Assembly: GCA_964016885.1 (NCBI GenBank)
Contig: OZ024740.1
Span: 91,016,001 to 91,080,000, forward strand
DNA from: Eledone cirrhosa
Taxonomy: Eukaryota
Length of the DNA: 64,000 nucleotides
Direction of reading: 5' to 3'
Shown: positions 8,440 to 63,339 of the stretch, piece by piece
How the letters are laid out: each line of letters opens with the position of its first letter
Numbering within the stretch: position 1 is the first letter of the stretch
Translations under genes and position numbers: made by a program
The notes under the pieces: generated by a model
Databases searched by the model: none
Seen by the model: only the letters and a program-made list of their open reading frames with translations
Told to the model about the DNA's origin: nothing

Positions 8440-8925
8440 ATCGTTTCTGAATTTGTTTAGCAAGATTCTTTATCTGAAAACGCGTGTTGAAACCGATATT
8501 GTTATACTTTGGGAGGGTCATGTTGCCAATCAGAAACACACGCACCAGTTACTTTCACTTCAATTTATTATAATAAATTTATAAATTTAGGAATTTATAA
8601 ATTTCCGGTCGGTTGGTTGGTTCCACAACCAGATGATTGTTTATATATTGTCAAAGTTCTTTCGTCAGACAACACACACACAAAAACAAGATGGCGTAGG
8701 ACAGAACAAAGGAGAGGCACACAAAAACAAAGAAAATAATCTACAATCACTGAAGAGGTCACATAATGTGTGCCGAAAGAACTTTGACAATATATAAACA
8801 AACATCTGGTTCTGGAACCAACCAACCAACCGGAAATTTATAAATTTATTATAATAAATTGAAGTGAAAGTAACTGTTGCGTGTGTTTCTTATTGGCAAC
8901 ATGACTCTCCCAAAGTATAACAGTA
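8440..8925. mobile_element. Miniature palindromic derivative of the 30-35 kb PLE family (pLTR only)
   Basis: 8440-8668 matches 30098-30335; arms ~8497-8668 and ~8767-8925 are inverted; flanked by (TA)n. Confidence 0.85.
8744..8790 (+). ncRNA. Minimal type I hammerhead ribozyme (PLE pLTR), partly eroded
   Basis: tca-CTGAAGA-ggtcacataatgtgtgcc-GAAA-gaac-TT-tga; homologous to 34933-34979. Confidence 0.6.
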
Positions 8926-8939
8926 TATATATATATATG

Positions 8940-11910
8940 TATAGGAACGTAGGAGAGAGCGTAAAATAAAGACAATAACACGAGATGTAAGGGAATGTGG
9001 AATGAGATGTATAGTGTGTAGAGGAACGTACGAAAGAGCGTAACACGAGATAGAGTTAACTTGGGAGAGATTTAATTGTCCCTATATTTCAGATTTGCAT
9101 CCATAATCTGAGGGTTTTCTGTGGAGGGAAGGTTATCTGTCGGAGAGGAATGGAACGTGTCCTCGGCTGTTTGCTGTTCGTGACTAATGCGGTACTCTAC
9201 AGAGCTCGCGTGCGCGCGGAATCGGTGCAGTCAAGTAGAGGTCTAAGTAGTTCTTTTAATTGTGGGAGTGGGATGGTGTTAGCTGTCAGTTCATTGTACT
9301 ATTTCTCTTTGTTGGTTTTTGGTACTAGCGGCGTTGTATAGTCGCATGGTAGTAGTATTCTTTTTTTTTAGGTCAGTGGATGGTGGCGGTGCTACACACA
9401 CAAAATCAAGCATTCAAATGTCACTGTGTTTGTGTGCGTGTGTTCGTGCATCGTTAGTTTATACCAACCACCTCATGTCGCTTCTGTCGGATCGGTTATT
9501 TATTTGGGGTCCTAGGCGTTTGATCCAAAGTGCTTCCTTGTTCGTAGCGTGCCGGCGTTGCGTTCTGTCTTAGCACTGTGACAATGGGCCATCCGTCTTT
9601 GTTTCCCCATTTGGTGATGTGTTTCCGGAAAGATGAGGCCCTGATGTTTATGTGCTCCTTGATCCGGATATGTAGCGGCCGGATTGTGATACCGATATAG
9701 TAGTCGTTACACTTGTCACATTCCACCCTGTATACCACGTATGTGCGTAAGCAACGGTTCGTATGGCGCATCGGACAGTTTACGAGGGAACACGCCTCAG
9801 TTGATTTACCGGGTTTCCTGGAGAGGCATCTCCGTAGTGAGGGGCCCGAGTGGGTCATGTGGATGTTGAGGCCCTCTCTCCGTATAGCTCTGCGGATAGC
9901 GTTGGTGGTATTCTCGCCCAGGTGTGGTATTTTAAGGAAGCACTTACTTTGGGTGTTTCCCAGCCTCTTGCGTCTGGTGTCTCGTACTCAGTTTGTGAGC
10001 AAGGCACGGTACCCGTCGTCTCCAGCACTTTGAGGAATCGCTTGGTGTTTTTGACACCAATCACGGCACCGCTGCACCTGTTTTTAATTCGCGTGATCTT
10101 GTTCGTGATGTACTCTCTTTTAGCGCTGCTATGGAGGGCAGACTTGTAGTGGACGAACACGTCCCTGCAGGCTGCCTTGTGGTAGATGTTGGTGTGGATC
10201 CCTCCCTGCTCCGTGATGTTGATTCGGAAGTCGACGAGGGCAAGTGACCCGTTGTTGCTGGGGTGTTCAACACTGAAATGAATGTTCTCGTACGTGTTGT
10301 TGAACGTCTCAACAATTCCGTTTGCCATCTCCGGGGAAGATGTGACGATGAGTATGTCATCCACGTTCCTTGAGAAAAAGGCGACGGCGTTGAGGTGGCA
10401 GGTGTTGAGTGCCTTGCGCTCGAGGCTGACCATCTATGAGATCGCTATCACACCCGACAGGCTTGAATGGTCAGCCCCGAGGTTTGCCGGTATGTTTGGT
10501 CGAGAAAACCGAAGTATGTGTTGTCAACGACGATGGATAGGAGTTGGTGAATATCAGTTGGGGTGAGCCCGAAGAAGTGTTGGTTGGTAGATTCGACGGG
10601 TTCCATCAGTATATCAACGGCCGGGAGCGCCGGGACCGAGGTGTAAAGAGCGTCCACATCAAGGCTGAAGGCATTACTGTTAGGCTTTCTGGTATCGGGA
10701 TACATTTAATGCAGGCGCTCCATCACCTCCTCGGAGCTGTTTACGTGTCCCGGCAAGGTGTCTAGTATGGATTTGAGTATTCTGGCTACGATCCATGATA
10801 CTTTGTAGAGCGGTCCTCCCCAGGCTCGATACGATGGGTCTGATCTTCAGGTCGGGTCCCTGTTTGTGTGTTTTTACAAGGTGGTTGAAGGCGTGTATTC
10901 TGCTGTTTCTCGTGAGGAGGTCGTATCTGAGCTTTTTCAGGAGTTTAAGCCGGTCACAGATGCTGGCCCAGGCGGCGTTGATGTGCTCCTCGATCTGCGC
11001 CGGAGTGATTTCTGTGACTTTGAAGTAGAGGTTATCATCGTCAAGGTGATGATGGGCGAGGGTGCTGTAGGCCTCTCTACTGATGACACATAATTATTTT
11101 CCCTTGAGGGTCTTCGATTTCAAGTTGGAGAGAGTGTTGAGTTGAGATTTAGTGAGGTTGTGTGTTGTGCATGTGTGTGTGTGTGTTTGTATAGGATATC
11201 AGAGATGGAGTGTTTTAACCTGATGAGTTTAGTGTCCAGTTCATGGTTGGCGGGTGGATAGTGTGAGTGGAGTGGGTTGTCGAGGTGGTAGGGGGGAACT
11301 TGTGGCGGGTTGTGCGGGCGCCGTTATTTTCCGTGGCGCTGTTGATGGCGGTTACCCATTTAAGTCGGTAGGCGGCTCGACAGAAGTTGGCTTCGATGTC
11401 GAGTTTGAGTCTGTCGTCGAGTCGTAGGAGTTCCAGCTCGTCGTTCGTGACGGTGCCGGTTAGGTCCGTGACAAGATGCTTCGCATCGTTGAGGTGTGGG
11501 TCGGTGTTGGTGCTTGTGGCGGCGGCGGTTGCAACGTTGTTGTGTTTGACTTGGTTCTGGTCTGTCTGTTTGTTAGTGTCGGTGTTCTTGTTGCGGAGTT
11601 TAAGCAAGATCCAATCATATTTCCGTTTCAGCCGTTTCTTTTCGTGTTGGTCTGTGGAGTGGTAGCACTGGTCGATTGCTTTGTGATTTCAAGGAGCAAG
11701 TCGCCGGGTGTTATTGTTAGTTGATGTGTCCGCTTATGGATGTGTAATTGGCGGTTGAGATGTCACAGGATATGTTTGATACACGAGCGGTGTATGCGGC
11801 TAGCGGTGTTTTGAAAATCTGGTGTACGTAGGCACCTTGGTAAGCGGATGCTCCTGATGGTGGTGGGGATGACATCGTTTTTTAGGCAGCGTTTCAGGAA
11901 ACTAATTTTA
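8940..11910 (-). mobile_element. Penelope-like element (RT + GIY-YIG), 5'-truncated and frameshifted
   Basis: KIRPIVSS, FSLDVDALYTSVP, FSRNVDDILIV, LALVDFRI, then the GIY-YIG motif VVYRVECDKCNDYYIGITIRPLHIRIKEH; degenerate HHR-like hairpin at 9080-9114. Confidence 0.9.
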
Positions 11911-61899: not shown

Positions 61900-62745
61900 T
61901 CATACTCTGGAGGAAATAATATGTGTCCAGGCCTGATAGACATCGTCAGTGTTTTTGTTTAATGTCCGAAAAACACTGTTCCACAATACGGTTTACTAAC
62001 GCCCCGTAGTGAAGCATTTGTATGAAGAGAAAATGTTAAGGTCAGTTGCAATTTTCCTATATCCCAATATTATTACTTTCAGGTATTTCTATAAACAGTA
62101 GCTAACTCTTATTTAGAACAGTTGAGGAATTGTATGGTTCTCTCCGGCTCATAAGTGATGACTCCAGCCAGCATATTGGGTTAGGAAACCTTCAAAGGAA
62201 CCAGATTTTCCAGTTATGCAATCAGACTGGTACGTTTTCCATATGGTGCCCGAAGACGTGGTCCTCATAGAGCAGAATCCATAACTAAGCCTATTTTATA
62301 TTCTCAATTCTCACGGCATGAGCTAATAGCATAGTATATTGGATTTATAATCAATCACGTCATTCATCACCGTGTGGTGAACACGATCAATATTTTCTTC
62401 GTTGGCAGTGCAGGGCGTCACTTTCCCTCCTCCGTTCAACTGCCCTCTTTTGCACCGTTTATAAAACTGGAGCGGCACATATGTATGTAGTAAACAGATC
62501 AGCATGAATGTCTTTGGGGCGAAATTCTTTTGCTGCAGGCACTTGATAACACCCCGATTCCAAATGTTATCTATGTCAATAGTATGTTGATAGTAGATAA
62601 AGTTGAAGTCTTCTTTGAGCAATCGGATATCAATTTGCATAGAAAGAAACAATGTAGTTTTTAATAAGAAGAATATGAATTATCGCATGCAAGATTTCTC
62701 AGCTTTAGCATCGCCCCTTCAACTTATCAACGTTTCAAACCACCC
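61900..62745 (-). mobile_element. Mariner transposon remnant
   Basis: IWNRGVIKCLQQKNFAPK, EENIDRVHHTVMND (mariner HTH region) and a YEPE-like motif at ~62140-62160. Confidence 0.65.
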
Positions 62746-63276
62746 TTTATTTACTGAAATTCAATAATGATATAAGCAGATTTCAATTCAAGTTAGGGTT
62801 AGAAACATTTATAATTCAAATGTGTACATGAGGCGATATGTTGTATTTTCCTTTTCTTTAGGAGCGTGATAGAGGGTTGCGTGTTGAAATGCTCTCTACT
62901 AAGAATTGATAGCATTTGAGTTAGAAGTAATTGTGTAGGTCCGGCACGTTAGATAACGGCAAATATCACAGTGTGTAGTCATGCTATTTAACTAAATAGG
63001 AAGTTGGGACTTCGTTAAAAAAAGAAACATTGATTTTCTGCTTCACGTTCTTCTTATATTCGTTGGAAAGAGGAAAACATTGTATTTGTTTTCCCTACAT
63101 CTTTACATATGGCACATAGTAATTATACAAATTATTGTAACATATGGCAAACAATATCTCTCTCTATCAATCCAAATATGTAAACGTAATATATATATAT
63201 ATATATATATATATATATATATATATATATATATAGGATATTAATAAATGGAAACTATATTTATAAAACCATATTT

Positions 63277-63339
63277 ATTTCATTATATGTATTTCAAGGA
63301 TACCATCTTACATTATGGTATGCCTTCATCAGACAAAAT
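63277..63339 (-). ncRNA. Type I hammerhead ribozyme near a (TA)n tract
   Basis: attttgt-CTGATGA-aggcataccat(aatgtaag)atggtatcctt-GAAA-tacata-TA-atgaaat. Confidence 0.7.

Follow-up and report, generated by a model that had tools for sequence, protein, structure and literature searches.

We analyzed 64,000 nucleotides of the Eledone cirrhosa genome (GenBank assembly GCA_964016885.1, contig OZ024740.1, forward-strand positions 91,016,001 to 91,080,000). We call this whole stretch the window, and the positions below count from its first letter. The window sits on a 443-Mb contig, and the genome is 3.0 Gb. An earlier note had described it as a hotspot of hammerhead ribozymes, in which autonomous Penelope-like elements (PLEs) serve a layered set of ribozyme-bearing parasites that have no open reading frame (ORF) and share a (TA)n niche. 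We find a hammerhead/PLE/retrozyme system that is genome-wide and of a known kind. In the reading that we consider likely, the window is a typical piece of a genome filled with PLEs: it contains 3' ends of PLEs, with predicted dimer-type hammerheads, on (TA)n, plus three ORF-less retrozyme families that are likely copied in trans by the reverse transcriptase (RT) and GIY-YIG nuclease of PLEs. The new lead is a hairpin at putative RT start sites that Hydra-clade PLEs and ORF-less retrozymes seem to have in common, together with the two-ended "tail" of PLEs on the retrozymes.

We searched for type I hammerheads with a descriptor that requires the core boxes, stem II, a palindromic or hairpin-type stem III, UH, and a stem I of at least 4 bp. 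Stem II may reach 60 nt in the strict version and 130 nt in the extended version. (The limit was raised because a family with a long stem II escaped the 60-nt descriptor.) The extended descriptor finds 11 motifs in the window; 30 shuffles yield 0-1, and the window read in reverse yields 1. On the plus strand, their C3 positions are 13361, 34939, 37966, 38877, 52502, 53440, 57042, and 57567; on the minus strand, they are 49790, 53950, and 63332. The strict descriptor finds 8, versus a mean of 0.05 across 40 local dinucleotide shuffles, a comparison that the earlier note had proposed and that bears it out. These are real type I motifs, and their cleavage is predicted. Rfam does not report them: a scan of the window gave no hammerheads at the gathering score, and the best 150 of 242 matches by E-value include no hammerhead and are nearly all microRNA models on (TA)n.

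Ten of the 15 sites that had been listed as intact pass the descriptor. The other five (8750, 12815, 30354, 35553, and 51496) fail; they are mutated or 5'-truncated members of the same or sister families. Six more sites had been listed as eroded. Two of these, 14575 and 16810, are decayed members of a real family (both core boxes are present in 7 of 7 relatives), and two are doubtful: the core at 9080 is broken in the window copy and in all four relatives, and 12577 has the U3-A8 core but lacks stem I in 8 of 8 copies. We rejected the last two, 20035 and 47830, because an intact core is found in 0 of 2 and 0 of 5 relatives, respectively. Conversely, two motifs had been overlooked, at 38877 (plus strand), which passes the descriptor, and at 45613 (plus strand), which has one change in stem III. 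There are indeed about 10 families, as had been claimed, but not all of them are unrelated, as 37966, 45613, and 63332 have sequence in common. The motifs whose parent element is untraced, and the doubtful motif near 12577, are:

38869-39028, plus strand: hammerhead that ends on (TA)n and has a 91-nt stem II and a CACGTG stem III.
45605-45680, plus strand: decayed hammerhead, family palindrome TGCGCA.
16790-16862, minus strand: decayed hammerhead-family member with the second core box broken, and an older copy near 14575.
12575-12612, plus strand: hammerhead-like motif with the U3-A8 core and a CCGG palindrome but lacking stem I; it sits at the 3' end of a repeat with 1370 candidates and is excluded from the type I count.

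(The numbers of candidates, here and below, are first-look candidates.) In the family of the 12575-12612 motif, whose members are about 95% identical, all 8 copies have a 3-bp stem II and most have the CCGG palindrome. In the window, a frame that resembles the end of an endonuclease lies about 300 bp upstream. The motif could be dead or trans-acting. We also noticed that stem II domains can be long: they reach 100-115 nt in a Hydra-type family (at 49663-49798 and 53816-53958) and 91-93 nt in further families (38877, and locus L069), and descriptors with a short loop 2 overlook them.

The same motifs are abundant elsewhere in the genome. As a sample, we took 97 other 10-kb stretches at round coordinates on large contigs; for the strict version, the sample was 79 stretches (790 kb). 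The extended descriptor finds 91 motifs in the 97 stretches (3 and 3 in shuffles, 0 in reversed sequence), or one per 10.7 kb, which extrapolates to about 281,000 motifs genome-wide (bootstrap range 207,000-358,000). The strict descriptor finds 58 matches in its 79 stretches, or about 220,000 genome-wide. Most of these predicted motifs would lie at the ends of protein-coding PLEs, and some in short tandem repeats that carry no gene (see below). One hammerhead per ~11 kb over 3.0 Gb, below the thresholds of Rfam in the window, would be a major unannotated class of repeats. The claim that the motifs share a (TA)n niche also holds: (TA)6 lies within 400 nt downstream of 75 of 87 hammerheads, versus 949 of 3492 control positions. 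We also fetched genomic loci as relatives of the window's families (1.73 Mb in total, a biased set; L069 and similar labels refer to these loci), and these contain 374 matches in 61 clusters at 85% identity.

Stem III is usually symmetric. When we required only the core, stem II, and stem I, and removed the rule for stem III, stem III was perfectly palindromic (allowing G-U pairs) in 42 of the 59 motifs found in 790 kb (79 stretches). Three shuffles gave 3, 4, and 4 matches, with no palindromes among the 11. The palindrome differs by family (TATATA, TATGTA, TGCGCA, CGATCG, CACGTG, CCGCGG, or CTAATTAG), so the structure is kept among genomic copies while the sequence varies. These results agree with the claim of the earlier note that these are type I hammerheads with a palindromic stem III. 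A palindromic stem III allows two hammerheads to act as a dimer, an architecture that is described for PLE hammerheads in the accessible text of PMC4209133 and of a review (PMC6765202).

We traced nine hammerhead families to longer copies. Six of them are the 3' ends of coding PLEs (four from the Hydra clade and two with a zinc-finger linker). In the window, the coding PLEs, with clades as assigned from protein motifs (see below), are represented by:

30097-35141: coding PLE A (RT plus C-terminal GIY-YIG, with a CX4CxxC linker), as a broken minus-strand copy and an inverted copy at 33015-35141.
30354 (minus strand, U4 changed) and 34939 (plus strand): hammerheads in the pseudo-long terminal repeats (pLTRs) of PLE A; the element has both a long and a short 3' end, on (TA)n.
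8411-8926: pLTR fragments, inverted and direct, of a PLE A subfamily; the hammerhead at 8750 has a damaged stem I.
49939-51797, plus strand: coding PLE B (63% amino acid identity to PLE A); the hammerhead at 51496 has damaged stems I and III.
63236-64000, minus strand: Hydra-clade PLE 3' end with a long 3' untranslated region (UTR); hammerhead at 63276-63340; the end of the ORF lies within the next 1.3 kb past the window.
35361-38056: inverted pair of Hydra-clade PLE 3' ends (35361-36068 on the minus strand and 37458-38056 on the plus strand); hammerheads at 35553 (stem I damaged) and 37966.
51890-52602, plus strand: Hydra-clade PLE 3' UTR and end; hammerhead at 52497-52553 with a (TA)4 palindromic stem III.
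49617-49798, minus strand: Hydra-type PLE 3' end; hammerhead with a 101-nt stem II domain and a CGATCG stem III.
53758-53958, minus strand: another copy of the hammerhead with the long stem II (108 nt), with a 3' end that has one (TA)8 run in common with the end of R1 (see below).

PLE A is the parent of the motifs at 8750, 30354, and 34939, and has a hammerhead in each pLTR. It has 39,357 candidates in the genome, and 5 of the 8 loci that we fetched have open frames of 1226-1240 amino acids. The CX4CxxC linker is present in both PLE A and PLE B (at residue 1114 in the frame of locus L124). With this linker, both elements are of the Nematis/Neptune type; by eye, they seem nearer to the Nematis rows of the alignment in PMC8557442. 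The best database homologue of the main PLE protein in the window is a protein from Octopus vulgaris (69% identity; the next is at 51%), and a search against PDB found nothing beyond a weak match to the DRT1 RT. (A third zinc-finger-linker PLE, broken and on the minus strand, lies at 9000-11900, with the 9080 motif at its 3' end.)

In the families of 63332, 35553/37966, 52502, and 49790/53950, longer copies extend upstream, via a UTR of 1-2 kb, into RT/GIY-YIG frames. (For the inverted pair at 35361-38056, the ORF is about 1.7 kb upstream in the relatives L240 and L244.) Because the 3' ends join an upstream Hydra-type ORF in these longer copies, the short fold-back pairs are truncated, inverted PLE ends. 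The earlier note had taken such pairs for a layer of fold-back mini-parasites; instead, 35553/37966, 49790/53950, 52502, and 63332 are truncated ends of coding elements. The motifs of the Hydra clade (RWK/RWR, DKT, CxCX5C, CxxC, CxH, and GIY-YIG at the C-terminus) are all present in a 738-amino-acid frame in locus L252, are complete across the frames of L241, and are partly present in the broken frames of L240 and L242. Close relatives of the element at 63236-64000 have the 738-amino-acid frame, with RWR, DKT, CxCX5C, CxxC, and CxH. Judging by these protein motifs, as defined in PMC8557442, the families of 63332, 37966, 52502, and 53950 are assigned to the Hydra clade. We also considered Penelope/Poseidon and rejected it, as the clade-defining motifs (PMC8557442 supplement) point to Hydra. 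The family with the 738-amino-acid frame, judged from its copies, is very young: this frame holds about 30 of 150 scored matches, and some are in 4011-bp tandems. The open frames of 738 and 1226-1240 amino acids also agree with the earlier claim that the genome contains autonomous PLEs with intact RT/GIY-YIG frames. (Another Hydra-type nuclease fragment, with the CxCX5C linker, lies at 20923-21230 and is interrupted by (TA)n.)

The other three of the nine traced families, which we call R1, R2, and R3, are ORF-less tandem units of 420-550 bp:

53176-53745, plus strand: R1, unit of ~420 bp, ~1.35 units, ending on (TA)n; hammerhead at 53433-53476 with a CTAG stem III and predicted cleavage after 53470.
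57038-57698, plus strand: R2, unit of ~526 bp; hammerheads at 57042 and 57567; its end is the short 3' junction, on (TA)n.
12815-13706, plus strand: R3, unit of ~546 bp; hammerheads at 12815 and 13361.

Each unit has one type I hammerhead. The periods are 423, 526, and 546 bp for R1, R2, and R3, the GC contents are 0.37, 0.35, and 0.32, and the longest frames that start with ATG are 51, 53, and 43 amino acids. On the basis of tandem structure, hammerhead, and absence of coding capacity, R1, R2, and R3 are classified as non-LTR retrozymes, so this layer of the earlier scheme stands. They have 1336, 1775, and 2648 candidates. More than one period is present at 25 of 43 loci for R1, 11 of 19 for R2, and 8 of 19 for R3, and an inverted copy adjoins at 14 of 43, 9 of 19, and 9 of 19 loci. 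In the window, the R2 hammerhead at 57042 has its stem I shortened by the 5' junction, and the one at 57567 has the palindrome CTAATTAG and UU at the cleavage site. In the R3 copy at 12815, C3 is absent, as is stem I's 5' strand, and the copy at 13361 has a hairpin-type stem III.

We made several further observations on these families. Two 10-kb stretches (L246 and L247, in G000:C28 at about 109.96-110.04 Mb), 70 kb apart, consist wholly of the R1 unit, as a satellite-like array, and contain 14 and 16 intact hammerheads. In the window, an older pair of inverted copies (17947-18218 and 18859-19130) has 77-79% identity to R1 and flanks a 700-bp tract rich in (TA)n. A fourth ORF-less family, R4, was found outside the window (locus L243:5163-8100, in G000:C3). 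It is a 630-bp tandem unit, in five copies, with a hairpin-type stem III; it ends on (TA)n, and an ACTC/GAGT hairpin lies directly beyond the junction.

The 3' ends of coding and ORF-less families alike fall in two clusters that abut (TA)n, with the junctions at TA in the element. Counting from C3, the ends lie ~203 and ~263 nt downstream in PLE A (where (TA)4 comes next in 38 of 43 copies), ~100 and 190-200 nt in Hydra families (where (TA)4 comes next in 18 of 22, 31 of 39, and 14 of 19 copies in three copy sets), and 190 and 320 nt in the family with the long stem II. They lie ~250 and ~300 nt downstream in R1, 130 and 247 nt in R2, and ~240 nt in R3, which has a second end further on. The marks of PLE-type integration (two 3' ends, an inverted 5'-truncated partner, and partial tandems) are present across families. 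Such a tail corresponds to two internal RT start sites and has been called unique to PLEs (PMC11167929).

Hydra PLEs and three of the four ORF-less families (R2, R3, and R4) have a hairpin of 4 bp, RYTC/GARY, 6-12 nt beyond their 3' junctions. One full-length Hydra element, in tandem, has the hairpin within 7-9 nt after each of its two junctions (ACTC/GAGT and GCTC/GAGC), and ACTC/GAGT is found at the short junctions of five Hydra-type or related families. The R2 hairpin, GTTC/GAAC, is at 57178-57201, just beyond the short-junction position of the first unit. The R3 hairpin, GCTC/GAGC, is at 13061-13090 and is repeated from 13615. The spacing of the hairpin is kept while its sequence covaries. 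By eye, it is also present at the 3' end of a published coral consensus, Hydra-2_Amil. An automated pass found the hairpin in 6 of 10 clusters with callable ends (it was missed in R1, PLE A, R2, and one case with a long loop). At a test set of 11 junctions, from R2, R3, R4, and six untraced families, RCTC/GAGY is present at 5 (versus a background of 0.56% of TA positions) and RYTC/GARY at 8 (versus 1.6%). At the four junctions of R1 and PLE A, we found no hairpin. The long end of R1 starts with TATCG, as do both PLE A ends, which hints weakly that R1 uses a protein of the PLE A class. (In one R3 copy, in the unit upstream of the match in L171, the hairpin has changed on both sides, from GCTC/GAGC to GTTC/GAAC, which is the form typical of R2.)

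The tail ends on the retrozymes, and the hairpin that R2-R4 have in common with Hydra PLEs, suggest a cis signal for mobilization in trans. We tentatively propose, leaning slightly to the doubtful side, that the RYTC/GARY hairpin just 3' of each RT start is an RNA signal for Hydra-clade proteins, that its duplication makes the tail, and that ORF-less retrozymes carry it for recruitment. The 5' junctions do not pile up at the cleavage site (3 of 53 for R1, with 3.2 expected; 3 of 24 for R2, with 1.1 expected; and 0 of 3 for R4). As they do not cluster there, cut linear monomers are not the main template, and circles or uncut multimers both fit.

We infer self-cleavage and mobilization in trans from these sequence patterns, and they could proceed in four steps. 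First, a multimeric or circular RNA would be transcribed. Second, the palindromic stem III would let two hammerheads pair, and they would then cleave, perhaps slowly or helped by proteins. Third, the PLE protein would bind the RNA at the hairpin, nick (TA)n, and start the cDNA a few bases upstream of the hairpin via TA microhomology; two hairpins would give two start sites, and hence the tail. Fourth, with an uncut or re-ligated RNA as template, the cDNA would pass the cleavage site and stop at random, which would give copies that are longer than a unit, truncated, or inverted. R2, R3, and R4 would use the Hydra protein, and R1, which lacks the hairpin, may use a zinc-finger-linker PLE.

Several findings weigh against this account. 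The hairpin has a stem of only 4 bp and a loop of 10-78 nt, and some tails do not form it in their minimum free energy (MFE) fold. Of the 11 test junctions, 3 miss it; one of these is the long end of R2, which has only CTC/GAG. For six of the 11, we set the position by eye on one or two copies and already knew the motif, and the GTTC variant was admitted only after R2 had been seen. When we compared R1-R3 to 12 other hammerhead-flank references, 6 of them from traced coding PLEs, we found only weak AT-rich matches and short motifs; these references are a small share of the genome's PLE families. As for the ribozyme, when stem I was left free, it reached 4 bp in only 34 of 83 matches to the core, stem II, and a palindrome (0 of 2 in the reversed control), probably because the script favored the shortest palindrome. 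Of 6 motifs that we cofolded, only 2 formed stem III between the two molecules. The accessible text of PMC4209133 reports that PLE hammerheads cleave weakly, and that of a 2026 preprint reports that 8 of 9 Xenopus retrozyme dimers did not cleave in vitro (bioRxiv 10.64898/2026.07.22.740005).

The alternative that fares best, although we think it somewhat unlikely, is that the hammerheads are passengers. An RT-start signal on uncut, multimeric RNA would then suffice, and the fold would be kept weakly, or for dimerization or turnover. The lack of excess 5' junctions at the cleavage site would be expected, as would UU at the R2 cleavage site and the spread of the 12577 family without stem I. Also, ribozyme mutants of an Anolis PLE inserted normally in vitro, with no reads that ended at the cut site (PMC11167929), and the PLEs known as Naiads thrive without hammerheads. 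But the core, the stems, and a varying but symmetric stem III are retained in about 60 clusters, which implies selection. And the circular monomers of R1, R2, and R4 are predicted to be more structured than 25 shuffles (MFE z-scores of -3.9, -5.3, and -3.4), as reported for retrozyme circles. This alternative is compatible with mobilization in trans and departs from the four steps above at the second and fourth only.

It is improbable, in our view, that the ORF-less units come from coding PLEs with an ORF beyond our reach, as duplicated pieces of a pLTR or UTR, and that they spread as by-products and by satellite expansion at the DNA level. Six of the nine traced families did turn into coding PLE ends once longer copies were examined, the R1 arrays are at least 10 kb and could arise by unequal crossing-over, and the accessible text of the 2026 preprint reports retrozymes that derive from pLTRs. 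However, what lies upstream of the hammerhead in R1-R3 is the previous unit, at many dispersed loci. PLE protein matches near these families are sporadic (at 4 of 30 loci for R1, 2 of 16 for R2, and 2 of 16 for R3), and the ends and inversions are those of RT products.

Could another RT, from a long interspersed nuclear element (LINE) or the host, have made these copies, with the hairpin as a coincidence or an inherited decoration? There are many LINE-like RT fragments in the window and the genome, and our hairpin test was not blind. However, the copies have two fixed internal 3' junctions and lack an A-tail, their targets are (TA)n, and inverted partners occur, all of which matches the PLE signature (PMC8557442, PMC11167929), and the spacing of the hairpin is kept while its sequence covaries. 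We judge this very unlikely.

Finally, it is scarcely credible that ribozymes are specially concentrated in the window as a hotspot that serves some local function: 11 motifs do lie where 6.0 are expected per 64 kb, but against other stretches of the same genome, P(>=11) is 0.08 (0.11 with the strict descriptor), the four adjoining 10-kb stretches have 0, 1, 0, and 4 matches, and (TA)n content is average (4.3% of the window versus 5.4% of the genome sample). Of the layered scheme of the earlier note, then, the retrozyme layer and the (TA)n niche survive, and the hotspot and the fold-back mini-elements do not.

The window also contains other repeats. A palindromic element that resembles a miniature inverted-repeat transposable element, of ~125-270 bp and bounded by (TA)n, occurs in at least five copies (13753-13973, 35132-35322, 49300-49577, 56773-57038, and 60129-60406); we found no hammerhead in it, and it has (TA)n runs in common with PLE ends. 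Broken frames at 41337-43538 (minus strand) have a weak match to DUF4371 and are likely the remnant of a hAT-type transposase. Two related, broken L1/Tx1-like elements lie on the minus strand at 426-6388 (with an RVT_1 match at 6086-6388) and 22690-24285. At 26504-28325, 91-bp and 253-bp repeats are nested inside a 600-bp duplication, which is not a hammerhead family.

If the hairpin has the role that we propose, it would be the first sequence-level rule for which PLE mobilizes which retrozyme, and it would serve as a portable tag of insertions into (TA)n that PLEs drive. It may also explain how a telomerase-related RT positions internal initiation. So far, the mobilization of animal retrozymes has been argued from co-occurrence and from similarity to pLTRs. 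The tail on ORF-less units and the common hairpin make it directly testable with the young, intact 738-amino-acid Hydra protein.

The scheme as such is less new than the earlier note had supposed. Both PLE-derived retrozymes and a hammerhead-bearing, (TA)n-targeting Hydra element from Octopus bimaculoides (Hydra-1_Obim; Craig et al. 2021, PMC8557442 supplement) are in print. Animal retrozymes with a proposed dependence on PLEs are described in the accessible text of Cervera & de la Pena 2020 (PMC7229834), and retrozymes as non-autonomous derivatives of PLEs in that of the 2026 preprint (Li, Clavereau & Pollet), which covers 31 vertebrates, three insects, and a coral. In cephalopods, 235 Rfam hammerhead matches are reported for the giant squid (accessible text of PMC6962438), and a 2026 repeat annotation of O. 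vulgaris lists 31 active Penelope-like families, with ribozymes unmentioned in its accessible text (PMC13282606). Our literature search, which left most subscription papers and Repbase outside, found nothing on cephalopod retrozymes, on the PLE tail in retrozymes, or on this hairpin.

The ORF-less families closely resemble the non-LTR retrozymes of PMC7229834 and the 2026 preprint, as far as the accessible text of both goes. Those too are ORF-less, GC-poor tandem units (32-37% GC here) with one type I hammerhead each, found as dispersed partial tandems and long arrays that co-occur with PLEs, and both papers propose PLEs as the mobilizer. At 420-550 bp (R4: 630 bp), the units here exceed the 170-400 nt of PMC7229834 but fall within the preprint's 51-972 bp. 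Homology to pLTRs is reported for 21 of 57 Xenopus families in the preprint, versus none alignable for R1-R3 among the references that we compared. The accessible text of these two papers covers no cephalopod and mentions neither a PLE two-end tail nor a start-site hairpin for retrozymes.

The hammerheads are like those described in PLE pLTRs by Cervera & de la Pena 2014 (PMC4209133, accessible text): many families per genome, a palindromic 15.2-16.2/loop 3, an extra base at position 9/10.1, the U3-A8 core variant, and, in Schistosoma, opposite-strand pairs 100-700 bp apart that were read as truncated PLEs. Unlike those, the stem III palindromes here are mostly 6-8 nt. Our estimate of ~280,000 compares to 4,000-9,000 in coelacanth and Xenopus (PMC4209133) and, for the axolotl, whose genome is far larger, to 126,247 (PMC7229834, accessible text), although the descriptors differ.

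The Hydra-clade elements agree with PMC8557442 in their protein (RWK/RWR, DKT, the CxCX5C linker, CxxC and CxH around the nuclease end, and GIY-YIG at the C-terminus), in a canonical hammerhead near the 3' end, and in targeting (TA)n. They differ in their period (~4.0 kb, with 3' UTRs of 1.2-1.9 kb, versus mostly under 3 kb as published), in their tails (90-130 nt versus 30-40 nt), in having tens of thousands of candidate fragments, and in one family's 100-nt stem II domain. Another close system is PAc, a Poseidon element from Anolis (Frangieh et al. 2024, PMC11167929), which also has two internal RT starts that form the tail and AT-rich targets. PAc requires RNA downstream of its start sites, which may be similar to the families here. 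However, PAc starts in an AC-rich stem-loop without homology to the target, and no motif across families is given for it. In E. cirrhosa, the junctions are at TA in the element, a covarying hairpin lies just downstream, and this signature reaches ORF-less elements.

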